Of a stretch of DNA of 24,324 bases, positions 1,685 through 11,067 are shown one piece after another (position 1 is the first letter of the stretch; each line of letters starts with the position of its first letter). Under the pieces are notes generated by a model. That model was given only the letters and a program-made list of their open reading frames with translations. It searched no databases and was not told the DNA's origin. The DNA comes from a virus: UHGV virus genome UHGV-0175638; one strand, given 5' to 3'. Position numbers and translations under genes: made by a program.

Positions 1685-1870
1685 AAAAAATGCCCTCCAG
1701 TAGAGAGCATTTTTACTGTATGTATAACCAGTGTCAATGTATGAAATCCTGCGACCATACATCTCACTGAAGCCATAATGAAGTTAGCTATTTTTTGCTA
1801 TGTGAGTATGTGACTTTTGCGGTTAGCCTGCGGCTCATTGTTATATTAGGCGCAGATATAAAAGCAAAAT

Positions 1871-2077: not shown

Positions 2078-2647
2078 TTACCTAACGTACTTAATTGTTA
2101 AACTTATAATTTTCCCAATTATTTCAACATCTTCTATCTTGCACTCGAAGGCTCTGTTTCCACCCTCGACGAAGATTCTTCCACCGGGTAAACGAGTAAT
2201 GTCACGGATCGTTATTTCGCCATCAATACTTATTACCCATTTACCATCACGTATATCATCAAATTCCTTATCACAAATAAATTCAGAATTATTATCTGTG
2301 ATTACAAAAAGATTCTTGAATGCCGACGGTAGAAATTCTCTATCGAAAATATAAAAACCGTCTTCACACAAGGCCCCATCAGATAATACATATTTAGCAA
2401 CTTCCATAGTATTTGTATTACCTGAAGTTTGCTTTGAACCATGCCCGGTTGTGAGCCAATTAAGTGAGGTGCCTGTTTCAAGGGCGCACTGGATTACCCA
2501 TTCTGCTGGGAATGAGTCACGCATGTAGCGTGTGGCGAGTGTACTTTTAGAGATTCCTAAATGATCGCACAACGCCTGTCGAGTCTTGAATCCATAAGCT
2601 TCTACCATGCGCTCTATAGCGCCTCGTCCGCCTTTCTCCAAATTCAT
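2078..2647 (-). CDS. cI: CI-type immunity repressor (phage 186 CI-like, HTH N-terminal domain)
   Basis: About 190 aa; N-terminal region ...IERMVEAYGFKTRQALCDHLGISKSTLATRYMR...CALETGTSLNWLTTGHG resembles 186 CI from memory; ATG at 2647 preceded by GGAG (track ORF starts at GTG 2653); divergent from apl. Confidence 0.8.
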   Translation of the reverse strand: MNLEKGGRGAIERMVEAYGFKTRQALCDHLGISKSTLATRYMRDSFPAEWVIQCALETGTSLNWLTTGHGSKQTSGNTNTMEVAKYVLSDGALCEDGFYIFDREFLPSAFKNLFVITDNNSEFICDKEFDDIRDGKWVISIDGEITIRDITRLPGGRIFVEGGNRAFECKIEDVEIIGKIISLTIKYVR

Positions 2648-2671
2648 GGTCACTCCAAGTGAACTTTTATC

Positions 2672-3026: not shown

Positions 3027-3536
3027 ATGTTTGATTACCAAGTTTCCAAACATCCACATTTTGATGAAGCCTGTCGTGCATTCGCATTGCGCCACAACCT
3101 GGTGCAACTGGCAGAACGTGCTGGCATGAATGTGCAGATTCTGCGGAACAAGTTGAACCCAGCTCAACCTCATTTATTAACCGCACCAGAAATCTGGCTG
3201 CTTACCGATCTGACTGAAGATTCAACGCTGGTAGATGGTTTTCTGGCTCAGATTCACTGCCTGCCATGCGTACCGATTAATGAGGTGGCAAAAGAGAAAC
3301 TGCCACATTACGTCATGAGTGCAACCGCAGAGATCGGGCGTGTTGCTGCAGGTGCGGTATCTGGCGATGTAAAAACCAGTGCAGGTCGTCGTGATGCTAT
3401 CAGCAGCATTAACTCTGTAACACGACTGATGGCGTTGGCTGCTGTTTCATTGCAGGCCCGTTTACAGGCTAACCCTGCGATGGCGAGTGCAGTTGATACC
3501 GTGACTGGCCTCGGTGCTTCATTCGGTTTGCTGTGA
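3027..3536 (+). CDS. cII: CII-like transcriptional activator (186 CII family)
   Basis: About 169 aa; ATG at 3027 preceded by GAGG (track ORF starts at TTG 3021); position and size match 186 cII, and the sequence resembles it from memory. Confidence 0.7.
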
Positions 3537-3543
3537 GGTGCTT

Positions 3544-3744
3544 ATGCTGACGAAAGAACCATCATTTGCATCGCTGCTGGTAAAGCAAAGCCCGGCAATG
3601 CACTACGGTCACGGCTGGATCATGGGTGAGGATGGAAAACGCTGGCATCCGTGCCGTTCACAAGATGAATTGCTGGCAGAACTATCTACGAAAAAACGGG
3701 GGAACAAATGGCTATTGAAGGCGCTGCGGCGACTGTTCCATTAA
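3544..3744 (+). CDS. Hypothetical small early protein (66 aa)
   Basis: ATG at 3544 preceded by GAGGTG; in-frame with track ORF 3514-3744. Confidence 0.45.
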   Translation: MLTKEPSFASLLVKQSPAMHYGHGWIMGEDGKRWHPCRSQDELLAELSTKKRGNKWLLKALRRLFH

Positions 3745-4049
3745 GACCCGGTGAACGCCTGAATGGACTTAATCATATTGCGGAGTTAAGGGCGAAAGTT
3801 TTTGGTTTGAATATTGAGTCAGAGCTTGAGCGGTTTATTAAAGATATGCGTGATCCACGGGATATCAATAATGAACAAAATAAACGGGCACTGGCTGCCA
3901 TATTCTTTATGGCAAAAATTCCAGCTGAACGTCATAGCATCAGCATTAATGAGCTGACCACTGACGAAAAGCGGGAGTTGATTAAAGCAATGAATCATTT
4001 TCGTGCAGTGGTGAGCTTATTTCCCAGACGGCTAACCATGCCGAATTAA
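3708..4049 (+). CDS. Hypothetical early protein (113 aa)
   Basis: ATG at 3708 preceded by GGGGGAA; overlaps the 3' end of the preceding ORF in another frame. Confidence 0.5.
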   Translation: MAIEGAAATVPLRPGERLNGLNHIAELRAKVFGLNIESELERFIKDMRDPRDINNEQNKRALAAIFFMAKIPAERHSISINELTTDEKRELIKAMNHFRAVVSLFPRRLTMPN

Positions 4050-4116
4050 CCAACTAATGAAATTAATGGCGTAAACCCGCCGGGCATCCCTTTATCTAAA
4101 TTCAGGAGAATTGCTT

Positions 4117-4350
4117 ATGCGTAATATTGAAACCCTCACGACCAAAACCGGACCGGATGATGCAGGTCTTAATCTTTTACTGACAGAGGCTCGTCTGGAA
4201 GAACGCCGGGCAAGGGCTGAAGCAATGGCTGCTCGCCTCGATAGCCTGGCGTGTCATATCACCTCCCGCCAGCTAAACCACGTCGAAGCGGCAGAACTGC
4301 TGCGTGTGACTGCTGAAGCAATCCAGAACGAAGCGCAGGAGATCCACTGA
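4117..4350 (+). CDS. Hypothetical early protein (about 77 aa)
   Basis: ATG at 4117 preceded by CAGGAG (track ORF starts at TTG 4111); stop overlaps the start of the next gene. Confidence 0.5.
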   Translation: MRNIETLTTKTGPDDAGLNLLLTEARLEERRARAEAMAARLDSLACHITSRQLNHVEAAELLRVTAEAIQNEAQEIH

Positions 4351-4577: not shown

Positions 4578-5431
4578 GCACCATCCTGAAATGGGCGGGT
4601 AATAAAACCGCCATTATGTCCGAACTGAAAAAATACCTTCCTGCTGGCCCGCGACTGGTTGAACCTTTCGCGGGTTCTTGTGCTGTGATGATGGCGACGG
4701 ATTACCCCAGCTATCTGGTTGCGGATATTAATCCTGATTTAATCAACCTCTATAAAAAGATTGCCGCTGATTGCGAAGCGTTTATATCTCGTGCCAAAGT
4801 TTTATTTGAGGAAGTAAACAGTGAGCTGGCTTATTACAACATAAGACAGGAGTTTAATTACTCAACTGAAATTACTGATTTCATGAAGGCGATATATTTC
4901 CTGTATCTCAATCGTCACGGTTACCGTGGTTTATGTCGCTATAACAAGAGCGGGTATTTCAACATTCCCTACGGTAATTATAAAAATCCGTATTTCCCTG
5001 AAAAAGAAATTCGCGCATTTGCAGAGAAAGCCCAGCGGGCAACGTTTATCTGCGCGAGCTTTGATGAAACGCTGGCGATGCTGCAGGTGGGGGATGTGGT
5101 GTATTGCGATCCGCCGTATGACGGTACGTTTTCCGGCTATCACACTGATGGTTTCACTGAAGATGACCAGTATCACCTGGCATCCATTCTTGAACATCGG
5201 TCATCAGAAGGACATCCGGTCATTGTTTCTAACAATGACACATCCCTGATTCGTTCGCTGTATCGCAATTTTACTCACCACTATATCAAGGCAAAACGCA
5301 GCATCGGCGTGTCAGCTGGCGAGGGTAAATCTGCAACAGAAATCATTGCTGTTTCCGGGCCGAGCTGCTGGTTGGGATTTGATCCTTCGCGTGGCGTGGA
5401 TAGTTCTGCCGTGTACGGAGTGTGTGTATGA
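4574..5431 (+). CDS. dam: DNA N6-adenine methyltransferase (Dam-like, orphan)
   Basis: ATG at 4574 preceded by GGAGG; N-terminal LKWAGNK...EPFAGS (AdoMet binding) and the DPPY catalytic motif (VYCDPPYDG); no adjacent restriction endonuclease. Confidence 0.85.
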
Positions 5432-7842
5432 GTCATGACGATATGAACAATTGCAGCGGCTTTAACGAGGCCGCCGCAGCATTTTCATGGAACGGCTCGA
5501 AAAAGGCCATTAACCCTTATCTGGACCCGGCGGAAGTTGCGCCGGAGTCTGCACTTTCAAACCTGATCACTCTGTACGCTGCCGATAACGAGCAGGAGCA
5601 ACTGCGCCGCGAGGCACTGAGTGAGCAGGTCTGGGAGCGTTATTTCTTTAATGAATCCCGTGATCCTGTCCAGCGCGAAATGGAGCAGGATAAGCTCATT
5701 AGCCGGGCAAAGCTGGCGCATGAGCAGCAGCGTTTTAATCCGGACATGGTCATTCTGGCGGACGTAAACGCCCAGCCTTCCCATATCAGCAAGCCGCTGA
5801 TGCAACGTATTGAATACTTCAGCAGCCTGGGCAGGCCAAAGGCTTATTCCCGCTATTTGCGTGAGACGATTAAGCCATGTCTGGAGCGACTGGATTGTGT
5901 ACGTGACAGTCAGCTATCTGTTTCTTTCCGTTTTATGGCAAGCCATCAAGGGCTGGAGGGGCTGCTGATCCTGCCTGAAATGAGCCAGGATCAGGTGAAA
6001 CGCCTGTCCACCCTGGTAGCAGCGCATATGAGCATGTGTCTTGAGGACGCTTGTGGTGATTTGTATGCCACCGATGACGTTAAGCCAGAAGAAATCCGCA
6101 AGACATGGGAAAAGGTGGCAGCGGAAACCCTGCGTCTGGATGTTATCCCGCCTGCGTTTGAGAAACTTCGTCGGAAAAGAAACCGCCGCAAACCAGTGCC
6201 CTATGAACTCATCCCGGGTTCGCTGGCGCGTATGTTGTGTGCCGACTGGTGGTATCGGAAATTATGGAAGATGCGTTGCGAATGGCGGGAAGAGCAGTTG
6301 CGTGCTGTCTGCCTGGTCAGCAAAAAAGCATCCCCCTATGTCAGCTATGAAGCCGTGATGCATAAACGTGAGCAGCGCCGTAAGTCGCTGGAGTTTTTTC
6401 GTTCTCATGAACTGGTGAACGAAGACGGCGACACGCTGGATATGGAAGATGTGGTAAACGCCAGCAGCAGCAACCCGGCGCATCGCCGCAATGAGATGAT
6501 GGCCTGTGTTAAAGGTCTGGAGCTTATCGCGGAAATGCGCAGTGACTGTGCCGTTTTCTACACTATCACCTGTCCGTCGCGTTTCCATTCCACGCTCAAT
6601 AACGGCAGACCAAACCCGACCTGGACAAACGCGACGGTAAGACAAAGTAGCGATTATCTGGTCGGCATGTTTGCTGCATTTCGTAAGGCTATGCATAAAG
6701 CCGAGTTGCGCTGGTATGGCGTGCGGGTAGCTGAGCCGCATCATGACGGTACTGTGCACTGGCATCTCATGTGTTTCATGCGTAAAAAAGACCGCCGCGC
6801 CATCACTGCATTACTGCGTAAGTTTGCCATCCGTGAAGACCGCGAGGAGCTGGGCAATAACACGGGACCACGCTTTAAGTCTGAGCTGATAAACCCGCGC
6901 AAAGGTACGCCAACAAGCTACATCGCGAAATACATCAGTAAGAACATTGACGGGCGTGGTCTGGCTGGGGAGATCAGCAAGGAAACGGGTAAATCCCTGC
7001 GTGATAACGCTGAATACGTTAATGCCTGGGCGTCTCTGCATCGTGTTCAGCAATTCCGCTTCTTTGGCATTCCGGGGCGTCAGGCTTACCGTGAACTGCG
7101 ATTGCTGGCTGGTCAGGCGGCAAGGCAACAGGGTGACAAAAAAGCAGGTGCGCCGGTACTGGATAACCCGCGCCTTGATGCCATTCTGGCTGCTGCTGAT
7201 GCTGGTTGTTTTGCCACCTATATCATGAAGCAGGGCGGCGTACTGGTTCCCCGTAAATATCACCTCATCAGAACCGCTTATGAAATCAACGAAGAGCCAA
7301 CCGCCTATGGCGATCACGGTATTCGTATTTATGGCATCTGGTCACCCATTGCAGAGGGCAAGATCTGCACTCATGCGGTGAAGTGGAAAATGGTTCGTAA
7401 GGCCGTTGACGTTCAGGAGGCGGCAGCCGACCAGGGCGCTTGCGCCCCTTGGACTCGTGGCAATAACTGTCCCCTTGCTGAAAATTTGTACCAACAAGGG
7501 AAAGACAAATCAGCTGATGGGGATACCAGAACGGATATCACCCGTATGGATGACAAGGAGTTGCACGATTACCTGCACAGTATGAACAAAAAAGAGCGCC
7601 GGGAACTGGCTGTAAGGTTACGCCTGGTGAAACCGAAACGGCGTAGAGACTACAAACAGCGAATTACAGACCATCAACGACAGCAGCTCGTCTATGAACT
7701 GAAGTCCAGAGGATTTGATGGCAGCGAGAAAGAGGTCGATTTACTCCTTCGCGGCGGCAGCATTCCGTCAGGAGCAGGCCTGCGTATCTTCTATCGGAAC
7801 CAGCGTTTGCAGGAAGATGATAAGTGGCGGAACCTGTATTAA
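5428..7842 (+). CDS. A: Rolling-circle replication initiation protein (P2 gpA / 186 A family)
   Basis: About 804 aa; HUH-type motif [10 protein letters not shown]; start ATG 5428 overlaps the dam stop (ATGA), implying translational coupling; size and position match gene A. Confidence 0.85.
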
Positions 7843-7911
7843 TTACGCGGGTTAACAATTCGTGCTCTTAATAATACCAGGCATATCAGGCTGATGAACG
7901 TAAAAAAACGT

Positions 7912-7954
7912 TTTACATCAGTAAGATTATTATATACTGTAAATATAAACAGTG
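7912..7954 (+). promoter_or_regulatory. SOS-regulated promoter: -35 TTTACA, -10 TATACT, overlapping LexA box TACTGTAAATATAAACAGTG (7935-7954)
   Basis: Perfect CTGT-N8-ACAG with an AT-rich spacer, overlapping the -10, about 45 nt upstream of the ATG at 7996. Confidence 0.7.
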
Positions 7955-7995
7955 GTTATGCATACAGTATTGCTTGTGGTGTCATAGGAGGAAAG

Positions 7996-8184
7996 ATGCA
8001 GGACTATTTTTTGGAGTCTTTGAAGCTCCAGCGCATTGATTTTTTTCTTAAGCTTGTAGCGGCTAGTGAGTGTAGTGATGAAGAGAAGGGGCTGGCTCTG
8101 CAGTGGGTTTCTGAACTAACAGATGAACTCATGGCAAAAATCAGAACCCACGAATACAACCGCTCAATGGATGTCATCAGCTGA
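7996..8184 (+). CDS. Small SOS-controlled protein (62 aa), first gene of the tum-like module
   Basis: ATG at 7996 preceded by AGGAGG; the longer track ORF (7894-8184) would read through the LexA box and promoter, so the shorter start is preferred. Confidence 0.55.
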   Translation: MQDYFLESLKLQRIDFFLKLVAASECSDEEKGLALQWVSELTDELMAKIRTHEYNRSMDVIS

Positions 8185-8194
8185 GGTGACTTTT

Positions 8195-8428
8195 ATGCGC
8201 ATTGAAATAATGATCGATAAAGAGCAGAAGATTAGCCAGTCTACACTGGACGCCCTTGAATCCGAGCTTTACCGCAATCTGCGCCCCCTGTATCCCAAAA
8301 CGGTAATTCGTATCCGCAAAGGTAGCTCTAACGGTGTGGAACTGACCGGACTGCAACTGGACGAAGAAAGAAAACAAGTGATGAAAATTATGCAGAAGGT
8401 GTGGGAAGACGACAGCTGGCTGCATTAA
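8195..8428 (+). CDS. DinI-like protein (77 aa), likely Tum-type antirepressor component
   Basis: MRIEIMIDKEQKIS...ALESELYRNL...VWEDDSWLH parallels E. coli DinI from memory; ATG at 8195 preceded by GAGGTG; downstream of the LexA box. Confidence 0.65.
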   Translation: MRIEIMIDKEQKISQSTLDALESELYRNLRPLYPKTVIRIRKGSSNGVELTGLQLDEERKQVMKIMQKVWEDDSWLH

Positions 8429-8563
8429 GAAACGTTGCTGGCGTCTGAACTTGTTTCTGGCGTCAGCAAGGTTGAACAACGAGCCCTTGCGAGGCGTTAG
8501 CTCTGTAGTGCATGTCTATGCCGCATGAGATCGCATGATCGTTTGAGGATCGTTTTTGCTAAG

Positions 8564-8588
8564 GCCCGCCAGAACTGGCGGGCTTTTG
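8564..8588 (+). terminator. Rho-independent terminator ending the SOS/early operon
   Basis: GCCCGCCAG-AA-CTGGCGGGC hairpin followed by TTTTG. Confidence 0.7.
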
Positions 8589-8632
8589 CGTAGATCATGC
8601 AGGTGCATGAAAACCACTACATAAAGCGGGCA

Positions 8633-8651
8633 GGCGTGGCGGGGATACGAG
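8633..8651. other. Candidate cos site (cohesive-end sequence) of the P2/186 family
   Basis: GGCGTGGCGGGGATACGAG; the first 13 nt match the 186 cohesive end as I remember it (GGCGTGGCGGGGAAAGCAT). Relies on memory. Confidence 0.4.
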
Positions 8652-8769
8652 CGCGCGCCATAACCGTTAGAGATGCTGGGTACTAAAGCTATATACAGAA
8701 AAGAAGAATACAATTAAACTAGTAGAATATGAGAAAAATCAATAGTATGGTTAGCTAATTAGGGAAGTA

Positions 8770-9939
8770 GTGATGATAAGTTTAGAAAAATTTCAAATTT
8801 CCAATTTTTGGGGTTCGAAAAATATTACTTTAGATTTTCATAGTAAGTTTGTGATCCTAACAGGACACAATGGCTCAGGTAAATCTACCATCTTGGAGAT
8901 TCTACATGATTCATTTAGTCTTATGCATGACGGGGAAGTTCAAACTATTCATGAGTCTTGGGCTAGTGAGCTAAATTTTAGCGATGAAAGTTTAGCTAGG
9001 AGCTATTTTTTAGGTGACGATATTGAATTGCAGGATGCTTTAAAAAGAAGAATAGAAAACAGTGCAAAAAAAACTATTAAACTTGATATTTTTAACTCAT
9101 TTGATTTCATAAATAAAACAATAAATAATTACACAAAGAAAAAAAATAAAGATTTTTTAGTTAAGAAAGATTTCTCCTCATCATTAAAGAAAAAATCTTT
9201 TATGACTATGCAGTATCATCCAACAAAAGATGATATGAAATTTCCTAAAACTATTTTCTTTAAAGATAGCCGAGTCCTCTATAACACGGTTAGCGATGAA
9301 GTTAAAGAAGTTAACGACTTAGATATATTCAACGAAGCAGACAGCATTAACAAGACACTTTACTTACTAATGAGTTCTTTCATTATTGAGGAGTCTAAGA
9401 ATAAAAAGCTGAAGTTCAAAGATAAAAATGAATTAAAAAAGATGTTTATAAATGAATTAAAATCAGAACAAGCTTTTATGGGGGAGCTAAAAACGTCTGA
9501 TGAACAGTTAATGTCAAAGCTTGAAAGTTTGGTTGATAGAGTGTTTTTAAAAGAAATAAAAAATAATTCGTGGGGTGGGGGGCTTTTTTCAGCAATAAAT
9601 GAATTCCTAAAGAAAACAAAAAGAAGTGTGACTAGAGATGAAAAAGGTTTCATTGCTTTTAAACTTAACAATGGAAGTATTATAAAGTGGTATAATTTTT
9701 CAAGAGGTGAGAAAACTCTTCTTGTTCTTTTGTTAAGTGTTTTTTTGAATAAAGATAAAGATGTTATTTTTATTTTGGATGAACCAGATTTATCATTACA
9801 CATTGAGTGGCAGGAATTATTATTACCTAATTTGTCGCGTTTAGCTCCGGAGAGACAGTTTATATTATCTACACATTCCCCTGCTCTTGTAGGTAATATC
9901 GAAGAGCAATACTTAAATATTGCTGCTATTACGGAGTGA
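8770..9939 (+). CDS. ABC/SMC-like P-loop ATPase (389 aa), first gene of the AT-rich cargo cassette; candidate defence ATPase (AriA/OLD-ATPase-like)
   Basis: Walker A GHNGSGKST; signature-like FSRGEKTLL; Walker B VIFILDEPDLSLH; H-loop LSTHSP; long Lys/Asn-rich insert between Walker A and B; strongly AT-rich; ATG at 8773 preceded by AGGGAAG. Confidence 0.75.
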   Translation: MMISLEKFQISNFWGSKNITLDFHSKFVILTGHNGSGKSTILEILHDSFSLMHDGEVQTIHESWASELNFSDESLARSYFLGDDIELQDALKRRIENSAKKTIKLDIFNSFDFINKTINNYTKKKNKDFLVKKDFSSSLKKKSFMTMQYHPTKDDMKFPKTIFFKDSRVLYNTVSDEVKEVNDLDIFNEADSINKTLYLLMSSFIIEESKNKKLKFKDKNELKKMFINELKSEQAFMGELKTSDEQLMSKLESLVDRVFLKEIKNNSWGGGLFSAINEFLKKTKRSVTRDEKGFIAFKLNNGSIIKWYNFSRGEKTLLVLLLSVFLNKDKDVIFILDEPDLSLHIEWQELLLPNLSRLAPERQFILSTHSPALVGNIEEQYLNIAAITE

Positions 9940-9945
9940 GTTATT

Positions 9946-10983
9946 ATGGATGTTAATTCTCTCGGGTTCAAATCTCAGTCATCTTATTACAAAAAGTCAT
10001 CTATTTTTTTGGGTGAGAATCAACCAAGATGGGTTGCTGTCTGGGTCGAATCAGATGATGATAAAAAACTATGGTTTCCAGTGTTGAAGCATTCATATAA
10101 AAAAATAAACTTTAAATTTCATATTGCCTCCCTGCATAAGTTTAAAGATGGAAAGATATCTGATGGATGTTCAAGAATTTTTGCAAAAATTAAGAGCGGT
10201 GAAATTGAACTAGGAAGTTCCACAATTGCTTGCTTAGATAGCGATTACAGCTATATATCAGGTAACTATGCTTGCAAGCAAAAGGAATTATTGGAATCAC
10301 CTCATGTTTTTCAAACATATGTCCATTCTAAGGAGAATATATATGTTCACCCGATTGGAATTATTCAACTTTTTGAGCGTGCTTTAGGTGAAGACTTGGA
10401 GCAGTTAGGTATAAATGTAGAATGTTTTACTGAAAAATTATCCATCTCAATATATGAATATCTTGTAAAGTTGATATCGCTCTATCGCCTAAATGATCTA
10501 AAAGCATTCGATCTATATCATAAACAGTTCATGGATAATTTCAAAACAATTATGAATGAGATGAAATTACCAGAGGATCTCTCGTCTGATTATGAAAGCC
10601 TTTTGAAGGCGAAGCTTACTGATTTTGATACGGAACTTACACAGCATATAAAAAGCACTCATGGAATAAGTGTGATTGATGATACAAATCAAAGATTTAG
10701 AGAGATTGAAGTTAATCCGTCTGATTCATTGAACTTTATACGTGGCCATGATTTGTATCCTGTAATGATGAAAATATATAAGAGTATAGATCAGTATGTT
10801 TTCAAAGTTAAACGTGATCAATATAATCAAGAACACATATCTGATGAGATAAGGCAAAAGAAACAGAGGGAGATGGGTAATAAACGTGTGGATATTGAAG
10901 ACTTAATATGTACCCGGGGTGATGTTAAGGATAATCAATATTTCTCACGCACCATTAAGAAGCTTAATACATTGTTTGCATAG
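9946..10983 (+). CDS. Partner protein (345 aa) with Toprim-like acidic motifs (DUF4435/OLD-nuclease-like); candidate effector
   Basis: Starts 6 nt after the ATPase stop with GGAG upstream (operon); N-terminal VAVWVESDDDKK (Toprim-like E...D) and ACLDSDYSY (DxD-like); AT-rich. Fold assignment is inference from motifs only. Confidence 0.6.
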   Translation: MDVNSLGFKSQSSYYKKSSIFLGENQPRWVAVWVESDDDKKLWFPVLKHSYKKINFKFHIASLHKFKDGKISDGCSRIFAKIKSGEIELGSSTIACLDSDYSYISGNYACKQKELLESPHVFQTYVHSKENIYVHPIGIIQLFERALGEDLEQLGINVECFTEKLSISIYEYLVKLISLYRLNDLKAFDLYHKQFMDNFKTIMNEMKLPEDLSSDYESLLKAKLTDFDTELTQHIKSTHGISVIDDTNQRFREIEVNPSDSLNFIRGHDLYPVMMKIYKSIDQYVFKVKRDQYNQEHISDEIRQKKQREMGNKRVDIEDLICTRGDVKDNQYFSRTIKKLNTLFA

Positions 10984-10987
10984 GTTA

Positions 10988-11022
10988 AATGCATTGCCTG
11001 AAAATAGGCAGTGCATTTAATT
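10988..11022. terminator. Hairpin between the convergent cassette and portal gene (possible bidirectional terminator)
   Basis: AATGCATTGCCT-GAAAAT-AGGCAGTGCATT (11 of 12 bp paired) followed by TTAATT. Confidence 0.4.
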
Positions 11023-11067
11023 GGTATTGTGAATATTAACTGCACTCGTTGAATTTAATATTTATTG

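Follow-up and report, generated by a model that had tools for sequence, protein, structure and literature searches.

The window analysed here is the whole stretch of 24,324 nucleotides (24.3 kb), which comprises early and late regions of a P2/186-like prophage and adjoins rcdA. Over the left arm, identity to the P2-like prophage found in E. coli B strains is 99.7 %. The integrase gene, int, lies on the minus strand at 669-1685, as placed by mapping the E. coli B int annotation onto window coordinates. The gene for the 186-type immunity repressor, cI (2078-2653, minus strand, 191 aa), was recognised by its Pfam domains. After cI come, in gene order, a Cox/Apl-like gene, cII, fil, a DksA-like gene, a gene for a Dam-type DNA methyltransferase and the replicase gene gpA (5422-7842). 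Directly after gpA lies the module described here, which consists of the 153-bp gap following the gpA stop (7842) and the next two genes. The first gene, ORF1, is of the tumA type and occupies 7996-8184 on the plus strand behind the Shine-Dalgarno sequence AGGAGG (7986-7991); its 62-aa product is a predicted CI antirepressor. The second, ORF2, is a tumB or DinI-like gene of 77 aa at 8195-8428 on the plus strand, which begins 10 nt past the ORF1 stop and has the Shine-Dalgarno sequence GAGGTGA. A preliminary description of this DNA had reported a perfect LexA box overlapping a -10 element upstream of two small genes, the second of them DinI-like, and all of these features were recovered; the limits it had drawn (7912-8428) coincide exactly with the first base of the -35 hexamer and the last base of the ORF2 stop. 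Screening the whole window against Rfam at the gathering threshold revealed no RNA family.

The candidate LexA operator, TACTGTAAATATAAACAGTG, is located at 7935-7954, is assigned to neither strand and has its CTGT-N8-ACAG core at 7937-7952. An SOS box was defined as a 16-bp palindrome of the form CTGT-N8-ACAG with an A/T-rich spacer, lying within a sequence close to the 20-mer TACTGTATATATATACAGTA. The core, CTGTAAATATAAACAG, has this form with a spacer made up wholly of A and T, and it is the sole perfect CTGT-N8-ACAG in the 24.3-kb window, where 0.18 would be expected; at least one such palindrome was seen in 16 of 100 shuffles of the window. Of the 20 positions of the full 20-mer, 17 agree with the E. 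coli LexA consensus. No other site in the window comes within three mismatches of that consensus, and sites of this quality occurred in 0 of 100 shuffles. The comparison was extended to 12 distinct P2-like phages besides the window (Fels-2, SopEPhi, PSP3, 186, 500465-1, MLG42, ST13-OXA48phi12.1, ESSI2_ev040, ESSI-2, YenM_06.16-2, YenM_324 and ENT90). A LexA box was found at the orthologous position, 5' of a tumA-like gene, in all 12 of them, perfect in 11 and with one mismatch in the remaining phage, and the boxes of the window, Fels-2 and phage 500465-1 are identical. The box is preceded by TA in every one of the 12 phages, so that the hexamer TACTGT is formed, while the surrounding sequence diverges. 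Together, these results suggest that the site is likely to be bound by LexA. A second, tandem box was considered at the conserved ATACAGTAT (7963-7971) and rejected; its left half reads GTGG rather than CTGT, and it was therefore taken as a half-site only.

The operator overlaps a predicted SOS promoter on the plus strand. TTTACA at 7912-7917 is a -35-like hexamer analogous to the annotated -35 of the 186 promoter p95, and TACTGT at 7935-7940, the left arm of the LexA box, is a -10-like hexamer that follows it after a 17-bp spacer. The 186 record gives p95 a -35 of TTCACA, an 18-bp spacer and a -10 of TACTGT within the LexA site. The -35 is kept as TTTACA or TTCACA at an equal distance from the box in Fels-2, SopEPhi, MLG42, 186 and the ESSI2-type phages. 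The control regions of the window and Fels-2 are near-identical and share both the LexA box and the promoter hexamers. A scan of 7700-8800 with the sigma-70 consensus returned no promoter, because TACTGT matches TATAAT at only three of six positions. This null result was not accepted as proof that a promoter is missing, as the mapped p95 of 186 shares an equally weak -10. Since the -10 is weak by consensus, the promoter call draws on the analogy with 186 and on conservation, not on consensus strength. By that analogy, the promoter would be laid out like p95, with the LexA box lying across it.

ORF2 is readily assigned to the DinI family. It matches Pfam DinI (PF06183) at 6.6e-23 and 81.3 bits, relative to a cut-off of 24.2, over profile positions 1-63 of 63. 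It also aligns with the E. coli DinI structure 1GHH (2.7e-6) over residues 1-75, including the WE(D/S)xDxW C-terminus, so that host DinI and ORF2 share a full-length fold family. With the NCBIfam DinI equivalog NF007893, ORF2 scored 42.7 bits, below the cut-off of 111, and we therefore regard it as a phage DinI-like paralogue of the TumB type rather than as an orthologue of chromosomal dinI. Among phage proteins, ORF2 is identical to the Fels-2 DinI-family protein (77/77, 100 %), 78 % identical to PSP3 TumB and 41 % identical to residues 71-145 of 186 Tum (E 3e-24). A DinI-like role on RecA filaments is predicted from this similarity.

ORF1 is 98.4 % identical to Fels-2 STM2728 (61/62 residues). 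No match to 186 Tum was obtained with BLASTP, and homology between the two thus had to be demonstrated with profiles. ORF1 matched phrog_698 (3.6e-38), phrog_8554 (2.4e-8) and phrog_1993 (2e-3); residues 1-70 of 186 Tum matched the same three profiles (5.9e-6, 3.4e-12 and 1.5e-23, respectively) at the same profile positions as ORF1. Comparing two small alignments, the ORF1 group and the Tum-N/TumA group, hhalign paired residues 1-42 with residues 1-42 at 96.4 % probability (E 1.3e-9). Sequences from ESSI-2, YenM_324, YenM_06.16-2 and ENT90 bridge the two groups. Profile searches thus found Tum or DinI similarity for both ORFs, and on these alignments ORF1 is remotely homologous to the N-terminal half of 186 Tum, as ORF2 corresponds to residues 71-145. 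Searches of ORF1 against Pfam, NCBIfam, PADLOC and PDB sequences identified no family. In a large protein search, the best 120 ORF1 matches listed were all close relatives with at least 81 % identity, and no fused Tum-like protein was among them. An AF2 model of ORF1 (mean pLDDT 90) is a helical hairpin with helices at residues 2-23 and 28-61.

The position of ORF1 is also that of a tum gene: the gpA stop (7842) is followed by the box at 7935-7954 and then by the ORF1 start at 7996, and the order of gene A followed by a LexA-controlled operon with a tumA-type gene first is common to 186, PSP3 and Fels-2. In five of the phages, a tumA-like gene follows a LexA box and no gene of the DinI type occurs within 700 bp, which suggests that the tumA-like gene is the constant component. 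A longer, 96-aa version of ORF1 starting from the ATG at 7894 was rejected: it would start ahead of the promoter, and the additional N-terminal stretch lacks conservation, with no upstream ATG in Fels-2 and a stop 17 codons upstream in SopEPhi. Two antisense ORFs, 8004-8177 and 8177-8479, were set aside as well; nothing independent supports them, and the strand facing them carries conserved coding genes.

RNA folding placed two structures downstream of ORF2 on the plus strand. A stem-loop without a U-run (8431-8473) stands right after the ORF2 stop, at a position matching that of the partial terminator t95a in 186. It is followed by an intrinsic terminator at 8561-8588, in which the GC-rich stem GGCCCGCCA/TGGCGGGC precedes UUUU. 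The fold of 8425-8600 has a z-score of -4.1, and the SOS operon probably ends at the terminator. The segment around it (8510-8658) is kept after the operon in Fels-2, 500465-1 and MLG42, as determined by blastn. The orf97-type gene of Fels-2 and 186 is absent here, and the blastn breakpoints place window positions 8427-8510 in its stead. Past ~8659, GC content falls to 26-37 % and the DNA encodes a PARIS-like pair as neighbouring cargo, outside the SOS module. By sequence, the pair consists of an adjacent putative AriA ABC-type ATPase (PADLOC 8.1e-36; Pfam AAA_21/AAA_15) and a putative AriB DUF4435/Toprim protein (PADLOC 8.5e-19; Pfam DUF4435). Elsewhere the matching site carries a retron (E. 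coli B), a TIR-domain gene (500465-1) or other genes (Fels-2).

The closest known relative of the module is in Fels-2 of Salmonella Typhimurium LT2, where the operon STM2728/STM2727/STM2726 stands in the same place after gene A; STM2727 appears as STM2726.1 in the Fels-2 phage record. Fels-2 differs from the window in having the third gene, STM2726 (orf97-type), between the DinI gene and the terminator, and in its cargo beyond the terminator. In a microarray study of Salmonella TA100 (Fels-2+), STM2726-STM2727-STM2728 is among the operons, and STM2727 is in the LexA-regulon table with inductions of 5.5-, 11.1- and 14.8-fold as the dose of the mutagen MX was raised (PMC2225428). The title of Bunny et al. 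2002 (PMC151935), a paper cited by Lemire et al., attributes to Fels-2 the lethality of lexA null mutants in Salmonella. PSP3 likewise has a two-gene split after gene A, 3' of the LexA box CTGTATAAATATACAG. Its record describes tumA as 'similar to 5' end 186 tum; UV induction of prophage' and tumB as 'similar to dinI and 3' end of 186 tum'. Unlike the Fels-2 protein, PSP3 TumA is only ~22 % identical to ORF1 and sits in the 186-like sequence branch, so that its homology to ORF1 is visible by profiles only.

Phage 186 shares with the window a LexA-repressed promoter, p95, whose -10 lies inside the operator, and a CI target of the same family. It differs in that both parts are fused in one 146-aa frame followed by orf97, whereas the two genes here are separate and 10 nt apart. 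According to the 186 record, internal starts (GTG with its own Shine-Dalgarno sequence) yield a free 76-aa DinI-like product that is said to modulate induction; thus even the fused tum gene behaves partly as two. 186 Tum is known to bind CI, to block its binding to operators and to be needed for induction by UV or mitomycin (Shearwin 1998, cited in PMC3121763). The preliminary description had proposed that the function of Tum is split between the two ORFs. The gene is indeed split, as reported for Fels-2 and PSP3, in which tum is divided by a stop codon (Lemire et al. 2011, PMC3121763). The antirepressor function would not be, as the upstream PSP3 gene alone is reported, via a personal communication, to carry antirepressor activity (PMC3121763). 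The idea of a split Tum is therefore correct and already known, both from the literature and from the GenBank records of PSP3 and Fels-2. A looser parallel is offered by the dinI-gfoA/gftA operons of Gifsy-1/2/3, in which a LexA-controlled DinI homologue is combined with a small antirepressor acting against a non-cleavable repressor (PMC3121763). These operons differ from the window in having dinI first, in their antirepressor and repressor families and in their lambdoid background, and the likeness is treated as analogy rather than demonstrated homology.

The repressor of the window was examined as the potential target of ORF1. It matches Pfam Phage_CI_repr (2.8e-33) and Phage_CI_C (8.7e-27), and its score against Peptidase_S24 (16.7 bits) is under the cut-off of 23.3. 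It is 32 % identical to 186 CI and 41 % identical to Fels-2 CI. These matches suggest a 186-family repressor that would not undergo RecA-mediated self-cleavage, and the protein is the predicted target of ORF1. By analogy with Tum, ORF1 is expected to act as an antirepressor on it.

Collectively, these results make it very likely that the module serves a P2-like prophage of the 186/Fels-2 type as its SOS operon, in which LexA would repress the transcription of an antirepressor gene, ORF1, and of an SOS modulator gene, ORF2. In the undamaged cell, host LexA would sit on the operator at 7935-7954, and since the operator covers the -10 hexamer the promoter would be blocked. On DNA damage, RecA would become active, LexA would cleave itself and the promoter would fire, giving a transcript that carries ORF1 and ORF2 and stops at the terminator near 8588. 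ORF1 would then bind CI non-covalently and take it off its operators, and the early lytic promoter would be derepressed. As CI has no recognisable self-cleavage domain, it is the antirepressor that would couple induction to the SOS response. ORF2 would act on RecA filaments in the manner of host DinI and so modulate the SOS signal and prophage induction rather than cause them.

A different reading accepts the module as SOS-induced and denies ORF1 an antirepressor role; the operon would then be SOS-modulating cargo, with induction controlled elsewhere. The missing BLASTP similarity of ORF1 to Tum and its lack of a family in the four collections searched fit such a view. So does the range of repressors with which ORF1 is found: TumA proteins at least 98 % identical to it occur with CIs that are only 39-53 % identical to the window CI, which is unexpected for a specific protein-protein inhibitor. 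When seven such CIs were aligned, a small and phylogenetically non-independent sample of phages or prophages, identity averaged 73 % in the N-terminal domain (range 60-83) and 37 % in the C-terminal domain (range 23-58). The partners of ORF1 thus have conserved N-terminal domains, which could provide a common target for it. The N-terminal identity to the CIs paired with 186-type Tum is 40 % only. Further evidence against a cargo role comes from the profile homology between ORF1 and the Tum N-terminus, which is in register and bridged by the ESSI-2, YenM_324 and ENT90 sequences. In addition, the position and LexA control of ORF1 are constant in all sampled phages, and the tumA-like gene persists where DinI is lacking. 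We consider this reading improbable.

The same comparison bears on how an antirepressor could serve several repressors. The ~70 nt immediately upstream of cI, on its apl side, are not alignable across the phages sharing this TumA and apparently contain different repeats, which suggests that the phages have different immunities. One possibility, which we advance tentatively and would not favour at present, is that Fels-2-type TumA could have a broad spectrum as an antirepressor, docking on a surface that is conserved in the N-terminal domain of CI. The candidate docking surface is the CI segment RD-FPA(E/D)W(V/I)IQC, which is different in the 186 group.

The module might also be functional and yet decoupled from a defective prophage, so that its products act in trans on other P2-like prophages or on satellites in the same cell, which they would induce or disturb, or simply kill damaged cells. 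The window int has a 1-nt deletion (GG instead of GGG near 1535) that, compared with E. coli B and phage 4LV2017, splits its frame, and if this deletion is real, induction may give no excised phage. Despite heavy degradation, the related E. coli B prophage has retained both genes of the module intact, and crosstalk by antirepressors acting in trans is documented for the Gifsy and Fels-1 prophages (PMC3121763). However, the int difference amounts to one base within a homopolymer and may reflect a sequencing error; the remainder of the early region looks intact, as do the late genes, and no second prophage is visible in the window. This leaves decoupling very unlikely. Least likely of all, and already disfavoured to the point of being negligible, is that the palindrome is a chance match and the promoter lies outside SOS control: the perfect core recurred in some shuffles and the consensus scanner saw no promoter, but the 20-mer match recurred in none, the box lies in one specific 153-bp intergenic gap, it is kept across all the P2-like phages checked while its flanks diverge, and the near-identical Fels-2 operon is mutagen-induced (PMC2225428).

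The reading of the module as the LexA-controlled antirepressor operon of the prophage would apply well beyond the window. The 758-bp module is present in 1144 of 5426 complete E. coli genomes (~21 %), including the E. coli B laboratory lineage, and also in P2-like phages of Klebsiella, Salmonella and Yersinia. As the biology of 186 is textbook knowledge and the split form has been described in PSP3 and Fels-2, the finding resolves no open question. Its residual value lies in the annotation of the TumA family and in the hypothesis that the CI N-terminal domain is the target. In the top E. coli matches, the module is annotated as a 'hypothetical protein' and a 'DinI-like family protein'; in the records examined, the antirepressor gene is only a 'hypothetical protein', sometimes in the form of the over-long 96-aa ORF. 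Carrying this label and having no Pfam or NCBIfam model, the gene is missed by predictions of prophage inducibility. The occurrence of one TumA with CIs that have conserved N-terminal domains, diverged C-terminal domains and diverged switch regions is mildly new, and the association of a single TumA allele with numerous CI alleles yields a testable hypothesis on the antirepressor binding site. The module would link prophages of a class that is very common in enterobacteria to the DNA-damage response of the host and, if the broad-spectrum hypothesis is true, one such prophage, once SOS-induced, could also trigger P2-like prophages that are heteroimmune to it.

The product of the window cI gene (2078-2653), a 186-type immunity repressor, was compared with those of loci L014-L025, taking in seven phages whose TumA proteins, the predicted antirepressors of prophage CI, are at least 98 % identical. 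Among these seven phages, the N-terminal domains of CI shared a mean identity of 73 %, and the identity of the C-terminal domains was just 37 %. The sequences just upstream of cI could not be aligned across the same seven phages. The segment RD-FPA(E/D)W(V/I)IQC of CI was specific to the shared-TumA group, whereas phages of the 186 group carry R(G/D)xxSYDFxxxC instead.

TumA is encoded by ORF1. A 96-aa version of its product, starting from ATG 7894 (7894-8184), is frequent among annotations; phage 500465-1 and several database clusters, among others, carry it. This version was rejected: the promoter and operator both lie downstream of its start codon, and the extension lacks conservation. The credible form is the one of 62 aa. 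No Pfam or NCBIfam model was found for the ORF1 family, and the name it bears among the top RefSeq matches is 'hypothetical protein'. The half-site ATACAGTAT, located at 7963-7971, follows the LexA box at a distance of 9-10 bp and is retained throughout the Fels-2 group, namely in the window, Fels-2, SopEPhi, MLG42 and ST13-OXA48phi12.1. A standard second LexA box at this position was ruled out because the matching left half is GTGG rather than CTGT. At the junction with ORF2, the stop codon of ORF1 and the Shine-Dalgarno sequence of ORF2 both fall within a 6-bp hairpin (GTCATC-AGCTGA-GGTGAC, 8173-8190), after which comes TTTTAT. The two hairpin arms are identical in Fels-2 but are not conserved in SopEPhi. 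This hairpin could couple the translation of ORF2 to that of ORF1, or could attenuate read-through.

To the other side of cI, the minus strand carries a 63-aa ORF (1871-2062) between cI and int, which is a member of phrog_6000 (4.6e-34). Its product has a signal-peptide-like N-terminus and several cysteines, and the ORF is possibly a moron expressed in lysogeny. Directly upstream of int, which starts at ATG 1684 on the minus strand, there is a candidate promoter (1709-1737, minus strand) consisting of a perfect -35 element, TTGACA, a 16-bp spacer and an A-rich -10 element. The spacer is itself a LexA-like box, CTGGTTATACATACAG (plus-strand coordinates 1716-1731), with one mismatch to CTGT-N8-ACAG and a match to the consensus 20-mer at 16 of 20 positions. 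Elveevirus phages of Klebsiella share the promoter-like segment with 97 % conservation. This arrangement might place int under SOS control, although one-mismatch boxes are common by chance (13 seen versus 8.2 expected). The int (integrase) reading frame is split at ~1531-1540 into two minus-strand ORFs (1489-1776 and 669-1520) by the loss of 1 nt from a run of G, which reads CCAGGCTTTGC in the window versus CCAGGGCTTTGC in E. coli BLR(DE3). The int gene of Klebsiella phage 4LV2017 is likewise one continuous ORF, as in BLR(DE3). The deletion may be genuine, in which case the frameshift inactivates int; otherwise, it is a sequencing error in the homopolymer.

In 186 and Fels-2, an orf97-type gene is co-transcribed with tum, and the 186 record states that plasmid-expressed orf97 blocks infection by 186. 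This gene is absent from the window prophage (8427-8510, compared with 3432-4274 of the Fels-2 locus L003 and 5524-6384 of the 186 locus L002), which is of the E. coli B type. A 32-bp remnant at 8470-8501 showed a 94 % match to the sequence just after orf97 of 186. Located 3' of the SOS operon terminator is a PARIS-like defence pair (8770-10983, plus strand), comprising AriA (389 aa; PADLOC match 8.1e-36; Pfam AAA_21/AAA_15) and AriB (345 aa; PADLOC match 8.5e-19; Pfam DUF4435). A low-GC island extends over ~8659-11060, with 26-37 % GC compared to ~50 % in the flanking sequence. Where the window has this pair, E. coli B/BLR(DE3) has a retron, phage 500465-1 a TIR-domain gene, and Fels-2 the orf97-type gene together with others. 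Since these contents differ, the slot 3' of the SOS operon terminator is a variable cargo hotspot.
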